Translations under genes and position numbers: made by a program | IMG/VR virus record: IMGVR_UViG_2660238642_000001 | Length of the DNA stretch: 33,492 nt | Strand: one strand, 5' to 3' | Origin: a virus | Lineage: Duplodnaviria > Heunggongvirae > Uroviricota > Caudoviricetes | The notes under the pieces: model-generated | Seen by the model: only the letters and a program-made list of their open reading frames with translations | Database searches by the model: none | What the model was told of the DNA's origin: nothing | Shown here: in pieces, positions 3,627-12,793 of the stretch | Layout of the letters: each line of letters starts with the position of its first letter | Numbering within the stretch: position 1 is the first letter of the stretch

Positions 3627-5895
3627 AGCCTCCGGGCGTTTTGTCCCTCCGTCAGCATTTGCCGCAGGCACCGGTAAGACGTTTACCGGTGCTTATGCAT
3701 GGAACGCGCCACGCGAGGCTGTCGGGCGCGAAAGACCCCTTACACGTGACGAGATGCGTCAGGTGCAAGGTGTTTTATCCACGATTAACCGCCTGCCTTA
3801 TTTTTTGCGCTCGCTGTTTACTTCACGCTACGACTACATCCGGCGCACTAAAAGCCCGGTGCACGGGTTTTATTTCCTCACATCCACTTTTCAGCGTCGT
3901 TTATGGCCGCGCATTGAGCGCGTTAATCAGCGCCATGAAATGAACACCGACGCGTCGTTGCTGTTTCTGACAGAGCGTGACCATTATGCGCGTCTGCCGG
4001 GGATGAATGACAAGGAGCTGAAAAAGTTTGCCGCCCGTATTTCATCGCAGCTTTTCATGATGTATGAGGAACTCTGCGATGCATGGGTTGATGCACATGG
4101 CGAAAAAGAATCGCTGTTTACGGATGAGGCGCAGGCGCATCTGTATGGTCATGTTGCTGGCGCTGCACGTGCTTTCAATATTTCCCCGCTCTACTGGAAA
4201 AAATACCGTAAAGGACAGATGACCACGAGGCAGGCATATTCTGCCATTGCCCGTCTGTTTAATGATGAGTGGTGGACTCATCAGCTTAAAGGACAGCGTA
4301 TGCGCTGGCATGAAGCGTTACTGATAGCTGTCGGGGAGGTTAATAAAGACCGCTCACCTTATGCCAGTAAACACGCCATTCGTGATGTGCGTGCACGCCG
4401 CCAGGCAAATCTGGAATTTCTTAAATCGTGTGACCTTGAAAACAGGGAAACCGGCGAGCGCATCGACCTTATCAGTAAGGTGATGGGCAGTATTTCTAAT
4501 CCAGAAATTCGCCGGATGGAGCTGATGAACACCATCGCCGGTATTGAGCGTTACGCCGCCGCAGAGGGTGATGTGGGGATGTTTATCACGCTGACCGCAC
4601 CGTCAAAGTATCACCCGACACGTCAGGTCGGAAAAGGCGAAAGTAAAACCGTTCAGCTTAATCACGGCTGGAACGATGAGGCATTTAATCCAAAGGATGC
4701 GCAGCGTTATCTCTGCCGTATCTGGAGCCTGATGCGCACGGCATTCAAGGATAATGATTTACAGGCCTACGGTTTGCGTGTCGTCGAGCCACACCATGAC
4801 GGAACGCCACACTGGCATATGATGCTTTTTTGTAATCCACGCCAGCGTAACCAGATTATCGAAATCATGCGTCGCTATGCGCTCAAAGAGGATGGCGACG
4901 AAAGAGGTGCCGCGCGAAACCGTTTTCAGGCAAAACATCTTAATCGGGGCGGTGCTGCGGGGTATATCGCGAAATACATCTCAAAAAATATCGACGGCTA
5001 TGCACTGGATGGGCAGCTCGATAACGATACCGGCAGACCGCTGAAAGATACTGCCGCGGCTGTTACCGCATGGGCGTCAACGTGGCGCATTCCGCAATTT
5101 AAAACGGTTGGCCTGCCGACAATGGGGGCTTACCGTGAACTACGCAAATTGCCTCGCGGCGTCAGCATTGCTGATGAGTTTGACGAGCGCGTCGAGGCTG
5201 CACGCGCCGCCGCAGACAGTGGTGATTTTGCGTTGTATATCAGCGCGCAGGGTGGGGCAAATGTCCCGCGCGATTGTCAGACTGTCAGGGTCGCCCGTAG
5301 CCCGTCGGATGACGTTAACGAGTACGAGGAAGAAGTCGAGAGAGTGGTCGGCATTTACGCGCCGCATCTCGGCGCGCGTCATATTCATATCACCAGAACG
5401 ACGGACTGGCGCATTGTACCGAAAGTTCCGGTCGTTGAGCCTTTGACTTTAAAAAGCGGCATCGCCGCGCCTCGGAGTCCTGTCAATAACTGTGGAAAGC
5501 TCACCGGTGGTGATACTTCGTCACCGGCTCCCACGCCTTCTGAACACGCCTCAGCAGTGCTTAATCTGGTTGATGACGGTGTCATCGAATGGAGTGACCC
5601 GGAGGTCGTGAGGGCGCTCAGGGGGGCATTAAAACACGGACTGAGAAGACCAAACCGCCAGCAAAGAAACGGAAGCACGTTAAAACCACATGAAATTGCA
5701 CCATCGGCCAGACTGAGCCGGTCGGAACGATTGCAAATTACCCGTATCCGCGTTGACCTTGCTCAGAACGGTATCAGGCCGCAGCGATGGGAGCTTGAGG
5801 CGCTGGCGCGTGGGGCAACAGTAAATTATGACGGGAAAAAATTCATGTATCCGGTCGCTGACGAATGGCCGGGACTCTCAACATATTATCAATGA
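3616..5895 (+). CDS. A: Rolling-circle replication initiator (endonuclease) A
   Basis: ~760 aa from the ATG at 3616 (MAVKASGRF..., matching the P2 gpA N-terminus as recalled; the track ORF begins earlier at 3574). Contains the HUH motif EPHHDGTPHWHMMLF and paired catalytic tyrosines in GYIAKYISK. Confidence 0.9.
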   Translation: MAVKASGRFVPPSAFAAGTGKTFTGAYAWNAPREAVGRERPLTRDEMRQVQGVLSTINRLPYFLRSLFTSRYDYIRRTKSPVHGFYFLTSTFQRRLWPRIERVNQRHEMNTDASLLFLTERDHYARLPGMNDKELKKFAARISSQLFMMYEELCDAWVDAHGEKESLFTDEAQAHLYGHVAGAARAFNISPLYWKKYRKGQMTTRQAYSAIARLFNDEWWTHQLKGQRMRWHEALLIAVGEVNKDRSPYASKHAIRDVRARRQANLEFLKSCDLENRETGERIDLISKVMGSISNPEIRRMELMNTIAGIERYAAAEGDVGMFITLTAPSKYHPTRQVGKGESKTVQLNHGWNDEAFNPKDAQRYLCRIWSLMRTAFKDNDLQAYGLRVVEPHHDGTPHWHMMLFCNPRQRNQIIEIMRRYALKEDGDERGAARNRFQAKHLNRGGAAGYIAKYISKNIDGYALDGQLDNDTGRPLKDTAAAVTAWASTWRIPQFKTVGLPTMGAYRELRKLPRGVSIADEFDERVEAARAAADSGDFALYISAQGGANVPRDCQTVRVARSPSDDVNEYEEEVERVVGIYAPHLGARHIHITRTTDWRIVPKVPVVEPLTLKSGIAAPRSPVNNCGKLTGGDTSSPAPTPSEHASAVLNLVDDGVIEWSDPEVVRALRGALKHGLRRPNRQQRNGSTLKPHEIAPSARLSRSERLQITRIRVDLAQNGIRPQRWELEALARGATVNYDGKKFMYPVADEWPGLSTYYQ

Positions 5896-6308
5896 TGATT
5901 GACATGAATATACTACTGAGATTAATCAGATCATCGATTGATTCCAAGATTATAGTATGGAATGGGAACCGTAAACCGCTCTGAGAGTTGTATGCATATA
6001 TGCCTGAGGGCAAAGCTTAACGTGGTTATTTTGACCAACGTCAGCTACCTAAGAGTTATGGCTGGTCTTATGCTTCTGCATTCCCACAAGCATGTGATGT
6101 GTGGGAAAATGGAGCAGGGAAATCTAAGTTAAGTTGGATTCTAATGTAATTAAGATGCCTAAGTTTGCTTATCTTTCGCTGTGACGTGGAACTTTGTTAT
6201 GATACTGCATGCATAAACAGTTGTTTTCTGCTGTTTAAATTACCAGTGAGCACTTTTGCTTGCTAAGTATAGAATGTAGTCATTTTAAACATGTTGCAAG
6301 GTAGTATC

Positions 6309-7451
6309 ATGGCTGAAGAAGCAGGGCGCTTAACATTTTTTGATGTAACGAAAGCTGGTTTTTACAATCTTAAGGATGAAGTTCAAAAAAGCACGGATAT
6401 TGTAAATATATTAGACTCCCTGTCCAACTGGGTTTGTTCTCGTTCTTTTGAAGAAACCCTACCATTGGTTGATGACTCTAGACTGCGGAAAAAGGTTTAT
6501 TGTCGAGGTGTGCATAAAGATGAAAAGACAGGCGATTATTTTTTTGTGCTTTGGAAATCAGAACTTGATGGCAATGGTAATCTTCAGGGGGTTGCGCCAG
6601 ATTCACAGGTAAATTCATCATCTAGTGACGTTAAGATGCTTTCGGATGATATGACTGATGGGGTTAAATATATTTGGGGTAAGCCATGTTATTACTGGTA
6701 CATCCCTGAGTTCAATAAATTTGCTGCAATTCGTTTCCCTCACTCAAACTCAGACACTTATCTTTTTAGTCGCTATATTAGAGATTATGCTAATTTCAGA
6801 ATGCCATATCCCGGGCGTAAAATTGCAGAAGTATGCAGACCAAATCCAGGTGGGAAAGACATAAAGTTTAGTGTTGTTACATTTGAAAGTGATGACGGAA
6901 GTTCACGAGTAAGATTTTTATTTGAAGCGCAGCAGTATATGAAAAAAGCTGGGCGTATAAATATAAAGAAGATTCGTGACTCTATAACACATATTGTAAT
7001 AAGAGATACAATTGGAGCTAAAGTTCCAGATAAAAGAGCTTGGTGGGTAAAGGCTTTTGATAAATTTCCTGTATTACGTGATGAAGTACCTAAGACTCAT
7101 AAAGAACGACAGATAGAGTTAATTATTGAAGAAAGACCAACTGAAAAGCAAATTGACGAACTTTTCGATTTTTATGAAGAGGATTATGCTTTCGGCTCTT
7201 CTTGGAACAATATCGGCTTCAAACAGGATGGTAAGAATGGGCAGACTAAGTGGTTAGATGAATATGTTATGCGTGATTATTTGAATGCTACTTATACTGT
7301 AAATGATAACGCACATATCTCGGCTGAGAAATTGGCAGAGTTAATTAATGATAAACGAAAAGAACTCGTAAGTGGTCTCGATGGTTATGAGATTGATAAA
7401 ACTCAAGTTATACCTTCGGGAAATAACAATGAGGTCGCTATAGGAGGATGA
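6309..7451 (+). CDS. Hypothetical soluble protein, first gene of the island-1 two-gene operon (candidate defence protein)
   Basis: ~380-aa ORF in a clearly AT-rich island. The ATG at 6309 is preceded by AAGG; the track start is 6291. No Walker, RT, or nuclease motifs recognised. An Rx4H string (RDSITH) is present but not diagnostic. The stop is 1 nt from the start of the next gene. Confidence 0.6.
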   Translation: MAEEAGRLTFFDVTKAGFYNLKDEVQKSTDIVNILDSLSNWVCSRSFEETLPLVDDSRLRKKVYCRGVHKDEKTGDYFFVLWKSELDGNGNLQGVAPDSQVNSSSSDVKMLSDDMTDGVKYIWGKPCYYWYIPEFNKFAAIRFPHSNSDTYLFSRYIRDYANFRMPYPGRKIAEVCRPNPGGKDIKFSVVTFESDDGSSRVRFLFEAQQYMKKAGRINIKKIRDSITHIVIRDTIGAKVPDKRAWWVKAFDKFPVLRDEVPKTHKERQIELIIEERPTEKQIDELFDFYEEDYAFGSSWNNIGFKQDGKNGQTKWLDEYVMRDYLNATYTVNDNAHISAEKLAELINDKRKELVSGLDGYEIDKTQVIPSGNNNEVAIGG

Positions 7452-7452
7452 T

Positions 7453-7959
7453 GTGATAATAAAGATCCTTATTGGGATTCTCATGGCCTTCGTTCTGCTT
7501 GTTGGCGGTTTTAGCATTTCAGAAAGCGTCAAATATTCATATGTTGTTGATCTTCTTGGTGTTTTGCAAAATACGTCCGCGATGATTTTTGCAATTGCTG
7601 GTATTTGGCTAGCTTATCTCTATCCAAATGCAATCGCTGGTTTGATGAAATCTGAAAAAGTGGATTTTTTAGCAAGCAAAAGTGAAGCGAAGCGCATAGA
7701 AGGTATGATTCTTATTATCATTATGTCCGCTACTGTATTAATTTTTATTATTGCTTTTTACGCATTTAATGCTGTTCTCCGCGGTACGGATTTCTATGCG
7801 AACAATCGTCACCTTATTAAAGGTGTGAGTTGTGTATATATCTTGAGTATATTACTGACTCAACTGTCATGCGTTATTGTTCTTATTTGGAGAAATGTCT
7901 CGTTTATAAATAGGTTGTATACAGTAATAAACGAAAAAGAATTGGAGGAAAAGTTATAG
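7453..7959 (+). CDS. Small 4-TM integral membrane protein, translationally coupled partner
   Basis: GTG start 4 nt after AGGAGG (7443-7448) and 1 nt after the upstream stop. 168 aa with four hydrophobic stretches of ~20 residues (IIKILIGILMAFVLLVGGFSI, AMIFAIAGIWLAYLY, MILIIIMSATVLIFIIAFYAF, VSCVYILSILLTQLSCVIVLIW). Confidence 0.6.
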   Translation: MIIKILIGILMAFVLLVGGFSISESVKYSYVVDLLGVLQNTSAMIFAIAGIWLAYLYPNAIAGLMKSEKVDFLASKSEAKRIEGMILIIIMSATVLIFIIAFYAFNAVLRGTDFYANNRHLIKGVSCVYILSILLTQLSCVIVLIWRNVSFINRLYTVINEKELEEKL

Positions 7960-7991
7960 CGAACGGCATTTAATGCTGTTTTAATGATCTT

Positions 7992-8030
7992 AAGGGGTGT
8001 TTTTAATGCACCCCTTTCATGATTTTTTTT
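7992..8030 (+). terminator. Rho-independent terminator closing the island-1 two-gene operon
   Basis: Perfect 8-bp stem AAGGGGTG / CACCCCTT with a 9-nt loop, followed within 6 nt by a T8 run. Confidence 0.55.
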
Positions 8031-8076
8031 AGTGTTTGTTGTTTTTAATAAGAATTGTGAATTAACAGGAGAGGAT

Positions 8077-8808
8077 GTGATACACATAACAAAGCCAGGA
8101 ATTTTATTTAAGTATCGTAAGTTTGATAAAAACAATCTGAAGCTGTTATTGAATCGTGAGTTATGGTTTGCAAAACCAGATACTCTTAATGATCCTTTTG
8201 AAGCAAATTCTTCATTTTCAAATGTGCTTGATGCTGTTTGGAAACATTATCCACTGCCTCTTGATATGAGAATTAAATATGAGAGATATCTTAAACAGTC
8301 ATTGCAGCAAGTCGGAATTTGTTCCTTTAGTAAAGCGAGGAAAAATCAATTGATGTGGTCACATTATGCCGATGAACATAAAGGTATTTGCATTGGCTTT
8401 AAAGAGGAGTATTTGAAGAAAGCTGGGGTTTCTTTTTTGGAAGCAGATGTGGAATATCAGGATAATTATCCCTTTGATGATATTGTTAAACGTATTCATT
8501 ATTTTGAGGATAATGAATGCCTTAACGGGTTTGATAATATTTGCGGGGATATTTTACTTTCTATTTTAACGACAAAGTACACAAGTTGGAAATATGAAAG
8601 GGAGCGCCGATTGATTGTGGAGAATTTTGGAGCAAGGAAATTTGAACCTTTAGCGGTCAATTCTATAGCTTTTGGGTTAAGAATGAAGGAAAGAGATAAA
8701 AAAACGCTACTGACTCTATTGTCAGGCCCAGAGTGGTCGCATTTGAAATGGTTTCAATCAACGAAATCATCAATTAAATACTCTTTAGATTTCATACGTA
8801 TTAAATAG
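8077..8808 (+). CDS. DUF2971-like protein (unknown function)
   Basis: LWFAKPDTLNDPFE and MWSHYADEHKGICIGF match my recollection of the DUF2971 signature. The track ORF starts at GTG 8032, but a GTG at 8077 preceded by AGGAGAGG and lying downstream of the terminator is the more likely start. Confidence 0.55.
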   Translation: MIHITKPGILFKYRKFDKNNLKLLLNRELWFAKPDTLNDPFEANSSFSNVLDAVWKHYPLPLDMRIKYERYLKQSLQQVGICSFSKARKNQLMWSHYADEHKGICIGFKEEYLKKAGVSFLEADVEYQDNYPFDDIVKRIHYFEDNECLNGFDNICGDILLSILTTKYTSWKYERERRLIVENFGARKFEPLAVNSIAFGLRMKERDKKTLLTLLSGPEWSHLKWFQSTKSSIKYSLDFIRIK

Positions 8809-9211
8809 CTTTCAAATAGTTACGGTGGTTGTCATGTTATCGTCCCTCTTAACTGTCAGATCTGATTGAATACTGGATATGTAACCTATCAGTTGGTGTC
8901 TGAGTTAATACAACTGAAAGTATCAAACTGATGGCTTTTGTTCACAGTCGGCAGCAGATAATGAAGCACGAAAATCTGATGCTTGATGCGTTGGTTGGAG
9001 GGCAATTAGTCCGGGAGAATTACGGGTTGCTTAACGATATCAGTCCATCCAGAATGGCTCCGTCATCACACAGATGATAGAGAACGCCGCTAGCCGTGAA
9101 ACTTGTTTCTAGTGTTAGCGGGGGGGAACAATGAGTGCAGCGATGCGTTAGACTTATTTGTGTATTATGGCTTAATCTCGGATAGAGTTTGTTATCTGGA
9201 GAATAGGTTAT

Positions 9212-9631
9212 ATGGTGACGCTTGATACTGTGTATTGGAAGTTTGGTTATGCATCGGAAGCTGCCCAATTATTGGAGACTGAATTAATAAATGCCCTCAC
9301 TGAGTATGATATGAAGCAAGGGGGGGATATAGCGTCGTTGAAAAAACAGTTTCTAGAAATGGATAAGTACACGCTGGGTAAACTGAATTACGCACTGAAG
9401 TCAAGGATGGTGGGGGATGCTGATACACTGGAGCATGTGTCAGATGCTCTTAAAGCCAGAAACTACTTGGCACATGAGTTTTATCGCAAACATGCTGATG
9501 GTAAATTCACTCCAGAAGGAAGGCAGAGAATGCTTGCTGACTTAAAAAATATACATCAAATAATTTTTGAGGCTTACCGCAAGGTTCTGCAACTAAGTGA
9601 CATTGATATTCCTCCTTTAGAGCATGATTAA
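9212..9631 (+). CDS. Small alpha-helical HEPN-like protein (putative RNase or toxin)
   Basis: 139 aa, charged and helix-prone, with ARNYLAHEFY (R83-x4-H88-x2-Y91) resembling the HEPN Rx4-6H motif. Stand-alone gene at the distal end of the island. Confidence 0.45.
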   Translation: MVTLDTVYWKFGYASEAAQLLETELINALTEYDMKQGGDIASLKKQFLEMDKYTLGKLNYALKSRMVGDADTLEHVSDALKARNYLAHEFYRKHADGKFTPEGRQRMLADLKNIHQIIFEAYRKVLQLSDIDIPPLEHD

Positions 9632-9633
9632 AT

Positions 9634-9673
9634 CTTGCATGCATTAGATGCATTAGATGCATTAGTTTGCATG
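9634..9673. repeat. Tandem 9-bp repeat GCATTAGAT (about 2.8 copies) bracketed by TTGCATGC direct repeats
   Basis: Directly visible: ttGCATGCATTAGATGCATTAGATGCATTAGtttGCATGC immediately after the stop of the HEPN-like gene. Confidence 0.6.
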
Positions 9674-9768: not shown

Positions 9769-9787
9769 GGCGAGGCGGGGAAAGCAC
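9769..9787. other. cos site (19-nt cohesive-end sequence of P2)
   Basis: GGCGAGGCGGGGAAAGCAC matches the P2 cohesive end as I recall it. It lies between the accessory island and the portal gene Q, the position expected for a linearly integrated P2-type genome. Confidence 0.65.
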
Positions 9788-9956: not shown

Positions 9957-10991
9957 TCAGCCGTTGTCAGTGTCCAGTGAGTAGTTTTTAAAGCGGATGA
10001 CCTCCTGACCGAGCCAGCCGTTTATCTCGCGGATCCTGTCCTGTAGCGGGATAAGCTCATTGCGGACAAAGACCTTAGCCACTTTCTCAATATCACCCAG
10101 CGACCCGACGTTCTCCGGCTTGCCGCCCATCAACTGAAAGGGGATGCGGTGCGCGTCCAGCAGGTCAGCGGCGCTGGCTTTTTTGATATTAAAAAAATCG
10201 TCCTTCGTCGCCACTTCACTGAGCGGGATAATTTTAATGCCGTCGGCTTTTCCCTGTGGGGCATAGAGAAACAGGTTTTTAAAGTTGTTGCGGCCTTTCG
10301 ACTTCACCATGTTTTCGCGAAGCATTTCGATATCGTTGCGATCCTGCACGGCATCGGTGACGTACATGATGTATCCGGCATGTGCGCCGTTTTCGTAATA
10401 CTTGCGGCGGAACAGCGTGGCCGACTCATTCAGCCAGGCAGAGTTAAGGCCGCTGAGATATTCCGGCAGGCCGTACAGCTCCTGATTAATATCCGGCTCC
10501 AGCAGATGAAACACGGAGCCGGGCGCGAAAGGTGCCGGCTCGTTGAAGGACGGCACCCACCAGTAAACATCCTCCTCCACGCCACGGCGGGTATATTTTG
10601 CCGGTGAGGTTTCCAGTCTGATGACCTTACCGGTAGTGCTGTAACGCTTTTCCAGAAACGCATTACCGAACACCAGAAAATCCAGCACAAAGCGGCTGAA
10701 ATCCTGCTGGGAAAGCCACGGGTGCGGGATAAACGTTGAAGCCAGAATATTACGTTTGACGTAAATCGGTGAGCTGTGATGCACGGCAGCACGCAGGCTT
10801 TTTGCCAGACCGGTAAAGCTGACCGGGGGTTCATACCATCTGCCGTTACTGATACATTCGACATAATCCAGAATGTCACGGCGGTCGAGTACCGGCACCG
10901 GATCACCAAAGGTGAATGCCTCCATTTTCGGGGCGCTGGCGGTCATTTTTTTTGCCGCAGGTTGCGGTGTTTTCCCTTTTTTCTTGCTCAT
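9957..10991 (-). CDS. Q: Portal (capsid vertex) protein
   Basis: 344 aa, the P2 gpQ length. First gene leftward of cos and followed by the large terminase gene, as in P2. Confidence 0.9.
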   Translation of the reverse strand: MSKKKGKTPQPAAKKMTASAPKMEAFTFGDPVPVLDRRDILDYVECISNGRWYEPPVSFTGLAKSLRAAVHHSSPIYVKRNILASTFIPHPWLSQQDFSRFVLDFLVFGNAFLEKRYSTTGKVIRLETSPAKYTRRGVEEDVYWWVPSFNEPAPFAPGSVFHLLEPDINQELYGLPEYLSGLNSAWLNESATLFRRKYYENGAHAGYIMYVTDAVQDRNDIEMLRENMVKSKGRNNFKNLFLYAPQGKADGIKIIPLSEVATKDDFFNIKKASAADLLDAHRIPFQLMGGKPENVGSLGDIEKVAKVFVRNELIPLQDRIREINGWLGQEVIRFKNYSLDTDNG

Positions 10992-12763
10992 CAGTAAAAC
11001 TCCAGAATGGTGGATGTCAGCGGAGTGCTGATACCGGCGGTGAGTGGCTCATTTAACAGAGCGTGCATGGTCGCCCAGGCGAGGTCGGCGTGGCTGGCTT
11101 CCTCGCTGCGGCTGGCCTCATAGGTGGCGCTGCGTCCGCTGCTGGTCATGGTCTTGCGGATAGCCATAAACGAGCTGGTGATGTCGGTGGCGCTGACGTC
11201 ATATTCCAGACAGCCACGGCGGATGACGTCTTTTGCCTTGAGCACCATTGCGGTTTTCATTTCCGGCGTGTAGCGGATGTCGCGCGCGGCGGGATAGAAC
11301 GAGCGCACGAGCTGGAACACGCCGACACCAAGGCCGGTGGCATCAATACCGATGTATTCGACGTTGTATTTTTCGGTGAGTTTGCGGATGGATTCAGCCT
11401 GGGTGGCAAAGTCCATGCCTTTCCACTGGTGACGCTCAAGTATCCTGAATTTGCCACCGGCCACCACCGGCGGTGCCAGCACCACGCATCCGGCGCTGTC
11501 GCCACGGTGTGACGGGTCGTAACCAATCCATACCGGGCGGGAGCCGAACGGATTTGCGGCAAACGGCGCGTAGTCTTCCCATTCTTCCAGAGTGTCGACC
11601 ATGCAGCGTTGCAGCTCCTCGAACGGGAACACCGACGCCTTGTCGTCAACAAATTCACACATGAACAGGTTTTTAAAATCGTCGGCGCTGTTTTCGCGTT
11701 TGAGCTGCTCAATGTCGAACAGCGTGCAGCCGCCTTTCAGCGCGTCCTCAATGGTGACAATCTGCCGCCACTGGCCGTCCGCACAGAGAAGACCTCCGGC
11801 AAGGGCGTTATGACTGACGTCGATTTCCACGCGTTCGGCGGCGCTGGCGCGTCCCCGGTTGAACAGTTCACCCGACCAGAACGGGTAGGCGTCGTGCGCC
11901 AGCGTGGACGGGGTGGAGAAATAGGTCGAGCGCAGGTGGCTCTGTGAGGCCATACCTGATGCCACCTTACGCAGTACCTGAAAATTCGGGATCCAGAAAA
12001 TCTCGTCGACGTACAGGTCGCCGTTATGGCTCTGCGCGGTGTTGGAGTTGGTGCCGAGAAAAATCAGTTTTGCGCCGTTATTGCCCAGGACAATCGGGTC
12101 ACCGGTCAGGTCAACGTCAACCAGACGGGCAAAGGCGATGATGTATTCGCGGAACACATACGCCTGCGTTTTACTGGCCGACAGAAAAATCTGGTTATGA
12201 CCGGTTTTCAGGGCGCGCAGCAGCGCCTCGCGGGAAAAATAAAACGTTGCGCCAATCTGGCGGGATTTCAGGATATCGCGGATGCGGTGCTCAAGCCCGG
12301 CGCGATACCAGTGCAACTGATAGTCGAAAGACTGCTCAAAGAAAATCTGCTCCAGCTTTTCGATGGCCTCGTCACTGAAAAAATTCTTTTTCGGTTTGCG
12401 CCGCCCGCCTTTGTTGCGGTTAGCGACGTTCGGATTAAGGTCTGCCTCGTTGCCGGTCTGACTGTAACGGTTGACCCGTGCCAGTCGTTCAATCTGACGT
12501 CCCAGCAGGTCAATTTCCTTGAAGTCACCGCCGGTTTTCTGCGGTTTGATGATGAGCTGGGTCAGCCGCGCTTCCAGACTCATTTCGACACGGCTGATGG
12601 GGGCAACGCTGTCCCAGCCGTCGCGCTGTTTCCAGCTCTGCACCGTCGGGCGTTTCATCTGCAACATGGCGGCAATCTGCGGCACGGAAAACCCCTGCCA
12701 GTACAGCAGCGCCGCCTGACGACGCGGGTCGTGTAAAAGAGTGGTGTCTGTGGTGATGGTCAT
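10991..12763 (-). CDS. P: Terminase large subunit (ATPase)
   Basis: 590 aa from the ATG at 12763, which is preceded by GAGGT; the track extends to a TTG at 12793. Same length as P2 gpP and coupled to Q. Confidence 0.9.
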   Translation of the reverse strand: MTITTDTTLLHDPRRQAALLYWQGFSVPQIAAMLQMKRPTVQSWKQRDGWDSVAPISRVEMSLEARLTQLIIKPQKTGGDFKEIDLLGRQIERLARVNRYSQTGNEADLNPNVANRNKGGRRKPKKNFFSDEAIEKLEQIFFEQSFDYQLHWYRAGLEHRIRDILKSRQIGATFYFSREALLRALKTGHNQIFLSASKTQAYVFREYIIAFARLVDVDLTGDPIVLGNNGAKLIFLGTNSNTAQSHNGDLYVDEIFWIPNFQVLRKVASGMASQSHLRSTYFSTPSTLAHDAYPFWSGELFNRGRASAAERVEIDVSHNALAGGLLCADGQWRQIVTIEDALKGGCTLFDIEQLKRENSADDFKNLFMCEFVDDKASVFPFEELQRCMVDTLEEWEDYAPFAANPFGSRPVWIGYDPSHRGDSAGCVVLAPPVVAGGKFRILERHQWKGMDFATQAESIRKLTEKYNVEYIGIDATGLGVGVFQLVRSFYPAARDIRYTPEMKTAMVLKAKDVIRRGCLEYDVSATDITSSFMAIRKTMTSSGRSATYEASRSEEASHADLAWATMHALLNEPLTAGISTPLTSTILEFY

Positions 12764-12793
12764 GAATACCTCGCCGTGATGAATACACGGCAA

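Follow-up and report, generated by a model that had tools for sequence, protein, structure and literature searches.

A 403-bp gap in the anti-phage hotspot of a P2-like prophage: a probable recombination scar with a gene relic and a copy of an undescribed hairpin element

The region between gene A and the portal gene of P2-like phages is a hotspot that holds anti-phage cargo (PMC9122126, PMC13586616). According to a survey from 2026, defence systems are swapped rapidly at the P2 hotspots by recombination, for which no specific site was named; the pseudogenes predicted in P2 and P4 are mostly very small intergenic sequences, and those in the defence loci are likely leftovers of intense recombination (PMC13586616). 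Here, we describe a gap of 403 bp in such a hotspot, located in a stretch of 33,492 nucleotides (IMG/VR record IMGVR_UViG_2660238642_000001, hereafter referred to as the window), which is a P2-like (Peduovirus) prophage of Escherichia coli. The gap covers positions 8809-9211, between the end of an open reading frame (ORF) for a DUF2971 protein at position 8808 and the start of an ORF for a protein of 139 amino acids, possibly HEPN-like, at position 9212.

In most of the P2-like phages sampled, gene A is followed by orf91, a small gene for a protein of 67 to 78 amino acids, a hairpin element that we refer to as E, variable cargo, cos, and the portal gene. In the window, orf91 is absent, the small gene (phrog_11386, or gp37 in phage PSP3) is represented by a truncated homolog under relaxed constraint, the copy of E is a worn member of its family, and the leader of the 139-amino-acid gene is shared with PSP3. 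We consider it highly probable that the gap, with its cargo flank, decaying backbone gene, worn E, and leader, is a recombination scar and not a functional locus of its own. It is as such a similar case to the pseudogenes of the P2 and P4 hotspots (PMC13586616), with the difference that the remnant is a small gene of the backbone and not a dead defence gene.

We infer an order of events in which a block of about 3 kb, consisting of the PDC-M18A/PDC-M18B and DUF2971 cargo with short flanks, would have taken the place of orf91 and of the initial codons of the small gene. On the left, the break would fall where gene A ends (~5890), and on the right within the small gene, no further downstream than position 8908. 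The headless small gene, deprived of its start context, would then have drifted, with a 48-codon frame from an internal methionine kept by chance. Downstream of the stump, the worn E at 9083-9151 would have been left in place, followed by the 60-nucleotide leader with the ribosome-binding site of the intact 139-amino-acid gene.

A relic of the backbone small gene

The stretch is found at 99.8% to 100% identity in 18 complete E. coli genomes, in none of which the gap carries an annotated feature. The sole plus-strand frame of note, at positions 8931-9077 including the stop codon, corresponds to 48 amino acids (MAFVHSRQQIMKHENLMLDALVGG...), and no GGAG-like or Shine-Dalgarno sequence was found upstream of its ATG. 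The ORF list, the sequence, and the 18 genomes thus bear out the initial annotation as to the coordinates of the gap, its lack of ORFs of note, and the 48-codon frame without a ribosome-binding site. A TTG-initiated frame of 82 amino acids on the minus strand (9020-9268), which overlaps with the gap and the start of the 139-amino-acid gene, was treated as spurious because it is antisense to a frame under strong purifying selection in the relatives. Nothing unusual was seen when the gap was folded whole as RNA (z = -1.16), and searches for internal repeats in the gap yielded only short direct and inverted matches at the level of chance and no tandem repeats.

The G+C content of the gap is 42.7%, as compared with 35.3% for the cargo at 6123-8808 and 53% to 56% for the backbone (gene A, portal, and terminase), and reaches 44.6% at 8908-9082 and 53.6% at 9083-9151. 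The gap as a whole is therefore intermediate, and its centre is the most backbone-like part. The relic of the phage family's own small gene accounts for the earlier remark that the composition is closer to the backbone.

In a sensitive BLASTN search, positions 8908-9151 matched a segment in about 385 further complete E. coli genomes, with 67% to 78% identity. The segment was also identified in Wphi, PSP3, P24A7b, P22H4, several Yersinia and Salmonella phages, and others. In the P2-like members examined, it directly follows gene A and orf91 and precedes the variable cargo; in PSP3, it comes after tum. Its annotation is inconsistent: in Wphi it is partly "gp92" and in PSP3 it is "gp37", P24A7b has a minus-strand ORF at this place, and others have no annotation. 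An alignment of the relatives indicates that it is a real gene on the plus strand, with 67 to 78 codons, insertions and deletions that are in frame, and differences that are mainly synonymous. The product falls into 179 clusters at 90% identity, which mostly carry the names of Enterobacteriaceae genera, and matches phrog_11386. Its core, MAIVHRLQQIMVNENLTPxELVGCAEIVRDNYG, is nearly invariant, and the ratio of nonsynonymous to synonymous substitution rates (dN/dS) ranged from 0.00 to 0.13 in pairwise comparisons of 11 diverse intact copies, at dS values near or above 1. AlphaFold predicted a two-helix hairpin with disordered ends for the intact protein, and a fold search against PDB gave no match.

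Some of the existing names look like annotation artefacts. The record for Wphi contains one extra C that shifts the frame of the small gene (L002, ~4030-4060), which probably explains the odd gp92 annotation. The annotated minus-strand ORF in P24A7b spans both the small gene and E (L004, 4042-4341), and a version of 50 to 51 amino acids carries the spurious RefSeq name "meiotically up-regulated 80 protein".

The copy in the window matched phrog_11386 in hmmscan (E value 1e-9, profile positions 19-60 of 69), in tblastn (52.7% over 55 amino acids), and in BLASTN (74% to 78% identity), and is thus a clear match to a known gene in degraded form, with the same orientation and position as PSP3 gp37, directly before E. 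Detectable homology starts at about position 8908, inside the N-terminal extension. The start codon and the segment MHRxPGEIPxHKTKxIKL are missing, the first 18 codons having been replaced by sequence with stop codons. The 48-codon frame starts at a methionine that is internal in the relatives (M19), the open frame begins only 10 codons ahead of it, and an early TGA, derived from CGA, ends the frame one codon ahead of the TAG of the family.

The core of the window copy differs at 12 to 15 of 32 residues, as compared with 0 to 5 between any 2 intact copies. The dN values were 0.21 to 0.30, and in comparison with the nearest relatives we obtained a dN of 0.21, a dS of 0.47, and dN/dS values of 0.44 to 0.52, so that the purifying selection on the 33-codon core seen in the intact copies is not recovered. 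In simulations at this divergence, the 48-codon frame stayed open by chance in 34% to 44% of cases, and its openness therefore carries no weight. Judged from its sequence, the segment is a pseudogene, a headless and drifting relic and not a working member of the family, and the stump would not be translated. The earlier suggestion of a remnant of a displaced gene was thus essentially right, with the correction that the remnant comes not from displaced cargo but from the phage family's own phrog_11386 gene, clipped at the 5' end by the cargo.

The junction sequence upstream of the relic, at 8851-8907, had no BLAST matches outside the 18 identical prophages. It shows a weak positional resemblance to the first 18 codons in the relatives, with a 2-nucleotide difference in length and 3 in-frame stop codons, and may represent a vestigial start of the small gene.

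Element E and its copy in the window

In the relatives, E is a block of exactly 68 to 70 nucleotides that begins 2 nucleotides past the stop codon of the small gene and is more conserved than the gene. The mean divergence among intact relatives was 11.6% for E versus 36% at the third codon positions of the adjacent gene. The consensus sequence is AACGCCGCCAGTCGTGAAACTTGTTTTCAGGGCTGGCGGGGTTGAACAACGAGCGAAGCGAGGCGTTAG, with the layout AACGCC...hairpin...GGGGTTGAACAAC...mini-hairpin...GGCGTTAG. A pattern scan collected E on 61 IMG/VR contigs, and a covariance model, R1, was built from 31 sequences, including the window copy.

The structure consists of a long imperfect hairpin at positions 1-43 and a short second hairpin at positions 45-67, in which tandem G-A/A-G are replaced by Watson-Crick pairs in some members. 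In an alignment of 54 distinct copies, 96% of the cells were paired and 8 pairs showed compensatory change, with none of 500 shuffles being as good and 29% to 46% of the cells paired in slid controls; this alignment was fitted to the model, and the counts therefore lean towards the structure. The same fold, with 3 compensated pairs, was obtained independently from 31 copies with MAFFT and RNAalifold. The folding energy of the consensus was -30.6 kcal/mol for the plus strand (z = -3.4) and -19.4 kcal/mol for the minus strand, and G-U was the commonest state at 2 adjacent pairs, which together point to the plus strand as the one that is folded.

No match at an E value of 10 or less was obtained in the Rfam covariance search of positions 8809-9211 that the initial annotation had proposed, nor were there Rfam matches for the better-preserved copies of E in 186, PSP3, F, and an IncC plasmid. 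In a scan at the species level, all copies of E were from Enterobacterales, except for a few records that appear to be contaminants, and the family is confined to the P2/186-like phages and F-like plasmids of this order. It was present in 522 of 5,426 complete E. coli genomes (about 10%), with 1 to 2 copies in each, and the annotation under the match was almost always empty. No description of E was found in the literature on the hotspot, on hairpins between traT and traD, or on orf97 and t95b of phage 186, nor by searches with the sequence string. The family is an undescribed one, and it is the one new item here.

Copies of E are located 2 to 14 nucleotides past the stop codons of 3 different genes: the small gene, tum, and orf97. 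Many genomes contain 2 copies, which enclose the small gene when their spacing is 405 bp and an orf97-like gene when it is about 970 bp. Across 62 copies, the similarity between genomes ended abruptly at both edges of E, before AACGCC and after GGCGTTAG, with unrelated sequence beyond. The next gene is either co-oriented, with a start 25 to 135 nucleotides further on, or, often, convergent, with a stop 2 to 36 nucleotides after E. In phage 186, E is located between orf97 and the annotated p95 terminator t95b, inside the mapped p95 transcript, and t95b is a separate terminator 24 nucleotides after E. A clear member of the family (62 bits) was identified in F and F-like plasmids, where it lies between traT and traD in antisense orientation to the tra operon, on what we take to be the transferred strand, as calculated from the direction of F transfer. 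The apical stem of the F type differs, with compensatory changes from one plasmid type to another.

In the relatives of window positions 9040-9082 (for example L004 4130-4178), the majority of intact small proteins terminate in PPPRR(R/P) right before E, and this end is kept even when the stretch of 15 to 25 residues ahead of it differs widely in length and sequence. Immediately upstream of E there is a 9-mer, AGACGATAG, which recurs in a different frame at the 3' end of tum, ahead of the E of that gene. A constraint on the nucleic acid may thus reach a few bases upstream of E.

The position of E, its strand specificity, and its presence in a mapped transcript favour an RNA role in 3' untranslated or intercistronic sequence. 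The best reading is that E would be a hairpin module of plus-strand RNA, situated downstream of accessory genes in such a 3' untranslated or intercistronic region, where it would protect or process the 3' ends of mRNAs or serve as an insulator between adjacent cassettes. A by-product would be a 69-bp patch of homology where cassettes are swapped, a use that fits with the sharp borders and the paired copies around cassettes. Given the antisense copy in F, a role as single-stranded DNA is also conceivable.

The window copy scored 67.8 bits against R1 (E value 1.6e-14, model positions 1-69), although this score is not independent since the copy is one of the 31 sequences in the model. Other primary copies of the P2/186 type scored 80 to 100 bits, and second copies and the F-plasmid type 59 to 63 bits. 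A second E was sought in the window as a left border of the cargo, and none was found, the next best match being 13 bits. Two A-U pairs have been lost at the AAC/GUU base (TT to GG), and the conserved tail GGGGUUGAACAAC and the second hairpin have changed at near-invariant positions. The fold, at -20.8 kcal/mol (z = -0.8), was no better than that of shuffled sequences, and the divergence from the relatives was 19% to 25%, about twice the norm of the family. The neighbouring small-gene relic is closer in dS to the P2-type copies than PSP3 is. The low score, lost pairs, tail changes, weak fold, and doubled divergence make the constraint on this copy look relaxed as well, and it is the most degraded of its type, with the main stem surviving. 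The earlier suggestion of a regulatory RNA is therefore partly right, in that a conserved, covarying element of 69 nucleotides is present, but it is not specific to this locus.

It is possible, although we think the odds are against it, that the window copy still works as a cis-acting RNA that separates the DUF2971 transcript from the 139-amino-acid gene or acts in the leader of the latter, as a stabiliser of 3' ends, a processing site, or a terminator-like insulator. The family is under constraint in sequence and structure on the plus strand specifically and is found at the 3' ends of genes, between convergent genes, and inside the p95 transcript of 186, while the window copy retains the main stem, with a compensated pair (C-G to U-A), and a score similar to those of the second copies and the F type. 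However, no member has a U-tract after the hairpin, which argues against a canonical intrinsic terminator, the losses described above fall on the basal pairs and the tail, and the antisense orientation in the F-like plasmids is awkward for a role that is purely mRNA-borne.

Less likely still, E could primarily be a cassette boundary at the DNA level, either as a patch of homology or as a site of single-strand hairpin exchange, through which E and the 139-amino-acid gene would have entered together. This would agree with the abrupt borders, the 1 to 2 copies that bracket the small gene or the orf97-like gene, the same GTTAG/ACTT junction in the window, PSP3, and Kosakonia, the copy on the presumed transferred strand of F-like plasmids, and the rapid swapping of defence systems at P2 hotspots (PMC13586616). 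On the other hand, sharp borders are expected for any conserved patch beside variable DNA, no dedicated recombinase was linked to E, the cores of integron attC sites do not fit by eye, and there is no similarity to the nick site of the P2 and 186 gpA proteins. In addition, the conserved G-U pairs and the single-stranded tail suggest a folded single strand and not duplex homology alone. A more far-reaching version, which we regard as improbable, is that E defines a class of cassette borders, a strand-specific two-hairpin module that would be recognised by a trans-acting factor, would come after every accessory gene in the right-end part of P2/186-like genomes, would be present in F-like plasmids as well, and would be the physical site of cargo-cassette exchange.

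Cargo, leader, and the 139-amino-acid gene

Gene A ends near 5890, which, together with the positions of portal, terminase, and cos, places the region 5893-9631 in the hotspot, the right edge of which is fixed by the P2 cos sequence (Table 1). The 3 cargo genes recur as a block with about 87% identity in E. coli NH-21 (L087, 3501-6184), on a non-phage island that is flanked by IS1 and located next to a broken integrase gene. Since the 3 genes travel together in both the window and the NH-21 island, they seem to represent a single three-gene candidate defence unit and not 2 separate systems. The similarity to NH-21 extends from about 6123 to about 8850, fading about 40 nucleotides past the DUF2971 stop codon. 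The left junction of the insertion consists of some 230 bp downstream of gene A, up to the point where the cargo homology begins (5893-6122, 41% G+C). This sequence had no match to the relatives or to the NH-21 island.

A segment of a P2-like prophage, from gene A to the portal gene, was also observed on the 205-kb conjugative Klebsiella IncC plasmid KP1768_p1 (L069, 1-8056). Its small gene is decayed, a copy of E is present, and the cargo is a reverse-transcriptase gene in convergent orientation.

Table 1. Positions of features in the window and of additional copies of element E in other loci
Feature	Position	Strand	Evidence or remark
Cargo gene 1	6291-7451	+	PADLOC PDC-M18A, 1e-40
Cargo gene 2	7453-7959	+	PADLOC PDC-M18B, 1e-19
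Cargo gene 3	8032-8808	+	Pfam DUF2971; PADLOC PDC-S31, 5e-47
3' flank of the PDC-M18A/PDC-M18B/DUF2971 cargo block	8809-~8850	+	Similarity to NH-21
Junction sequence	8851-8907	+	Perhaps a vestigial small-gene start; ATG at 8878 followed at once by TAA
5'-truncated small-gene relic	8908-9077	+	BLASTN, hmmscan, tblastn, dN/dS
Copy of element E	9083-9151	+	Covariance model R1
Leader of the 139-amino-acid gene	9152-9211	+	Alignment with the sequence upstream of PSP3 gp38
Intact 139-amino-acid gene, possibly HEPN-like	9212-9631	+	phrog_12893; PSP3 gp38-like
P2 cos sequence, GGCGAGGCGGGGAAAGCAC	9769-9787	+	Exact match of 19 nucleotides, 0.01 expected by chance
Portal and terminase genes	9957-12793	-	
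Other copies of E, L003	3774-3841 and 4178-4246		
Other copies of E, L060	1712-1780 and 2679-2747		
Other copy of E, L070	3001-3069		
Other copy of E, L068	2464-2533		

The leader starts right after the GTTAG of E and, by eye, hardly differs from the sequence preceding PSP3 gp38, with GGAG at 9198-9201, 10 nucleotides ahead of the ATG at 9212. The GTTAG/ACTT junction is common to the window, PSP3, and Kosakonia, where it is found behind different upstream genes. In Kosakonia, the 139-amino-acid gene follows tum and E with no small gene in between, and for the distant homologues, whose surroundings are not those of a phage, both the small gene and E are lacking. Neither of the two is hence a partner of the 139-amino-acid gene. 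Scans for consensus promoters and terminators gave none at E or before this gene.

The 139-amino-acid gene is intact, and its family contains 30 clusters with 2 invariant blocks, SEAAQLLETEL near the N-terminus and RNxLxH. The latter corresponds to RNYLAH at residues 83-88, of which R83, N84, L86, and H88 are invariant in 20 homologues, and has the form Rx4H, in agreement with the Rx4-6H motif of HEPN proteins. The predicted model is a confident helical bundle, and a fold search returned generic helical bundles only, HEPN among them. The distant homologues, with 35% to 44% identity, were found beside PIN/HTH and ArdC genes in what is apparently plasmid DNA (L091). A perfect tandem array of 3 copies of the 9-mer ATGCATTAG is located at 9639-9665, 8 nucleotides past the stop codon of the 139-amino-acid gene and before cos.

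The proposal that the gap provides an antitoxin-like element for the HEPN-like gene did not hold. The small gene and E precede dozens of unrelated cargos in either orientation, and the 139-amino-acid gene occurs without the small gene in Kosakonia and is intact in the window while the small gene decays. Type II and type III antitoxins were both rejected, as the obligate co-occurrence with the 139-amino-acid gene fails and the gap contains no tandem RNA repeats.

Several observations weigh against the gap being no more than a scar. The 48-codon frame is still open, and the sole indel is an in-frame deletion of 3 nucleotides, which is weakly compatible with residual coding constraint. With about 0.5 along the entire path, the dN/dS value stays below 1, though a constrained ancestor forms part of this path. 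P0105, L018, and L024 lack the usual N-terminus, yet their core is perfect, and a short isoform from the internal methionine may in principle be viable. The compensated main stem of the window E suggests that this copy may still fold and act, and no promoter was identified for the 139-amino-acid gene. Conservation within the lineage is uninformative in either direction, since all 18 genomes are identical.

That the frame, translated from the internal methionine, gives a functional short protein such as an antitoxin or regulator of the HEPN-like protein is very improbable, for while it is open with a single in-frame indel, is matched by a few relatives without the usual N-terminal extension (P0105 among them), and lies directly upstream of a gene with an invariant RNxLxH motif, it has no ribosome-binding site, would be open by chance in about 40% of cases, has changed at 12 to 15 of the 32 near-invariant core residues with dN/dS values of 0.44 to 0.52 against 0.13 or less, gave nothing in PADLOC and Pfam, corresponds in its intact form to a bare predicted helical hairpin with no match in PDB, and belongs to a family that precedes many unrelated cargos and is dispensable to the occurrence of the 139-amino-acid gene.

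Significance and comparison with known systems

The finding of the gap is real but ordinary, and the E family is the sole item of wider interest. The gap in itself matters little, other than by showing how the defence cargo landed, destroying orf91 and the head of the small gene, and by removing the suspicion of a hidden gene for an antitoxin or small RNA tied to the HEPN-like protein. The element, by comparison, sits exactly at the left border of a well-studied anti-phage hotspot and between its cassettes. If E is a recombination anchor or an insulator of cargo expression, it would provide a testable handle on the rapid swapping at the P2 hotspot and a simple sequence marker for delimiting the cargo.

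A number of known signals were considered for E and set aside. The nick sequences at the P2 and 186 origins, which are the targets of the HUH nickase gpA (GCGCC/TCGGAGTCCTGTCAATAAC), are unrelated to E. Only the 8-mer GCGAGGCG is common to E and the 19-nucleotide cos sequence, and it was treated as a chance match. A Chi-like octamer, GCTGGCGG, was dropped since the arm in which it is located varies freely among the members, by eye. Likewise by eye, resemblances to the boxA of rrn operons (UUGAACAA versus UUUAACAA) and the boxB of lambda, to the -35 and -10 sequences of sigma-70 promoters in the tail, and to target-site duplications of miniature inverted-repeat transposable elements were inconsistent across the copies.

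Like Rho-independent terminators and the RNase III retroregulator of the lambda sib type, E has a long, G+C-rich hairpin at the 3' end of an operon, which for phage 186 means the 3' untranslated portion of the p95 transcript. An intrinsic terminator was nevertheless rejected, since the sequence after the hairpin, GGGAACAAT in the window and GUUGAACAAC in the relatives, contains no U-tract, and the terminator scans flagged nothing.

E is similar to repeated extragenic palindromes of the REP/BIME type and to the conserved "boundary sequences" between phage modules in that it is a short, repeated, imperfect palindrome, located after stop codons, between convergent genes, and at mosaic junctions. 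It differs in that it has 69 nucleotides, a fixed architecture of 2 hairpins, a conserved single-stranded tail, and only 1 to 2 copies per genome, and no sequence relation to REP is apparent.

The attC sites of integrons are imperfect hairpins of 60 to 140 nucleotides that are likewise located after cassette genes, fold in a strand-specific manner, and have sharp borders. Both attC and E begin with AAC and end with GTT followed by 2 purines, whereas E has a second hairpin and a conserved tail. Identity with attC was rejected because the RYYYAAC and GTTRRRY cores are not kept: the flanks before AAC are unconstrained and show no complementarity to the bases after GTT, and any base may follow GTTAG (62 copies, by eye). 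No integron integrase was seen in the annotated loci examined. If E were to mark a class of cassette borders, the defence hotspot of P2 would have a mechanism comparable in logic to that of integron attC.

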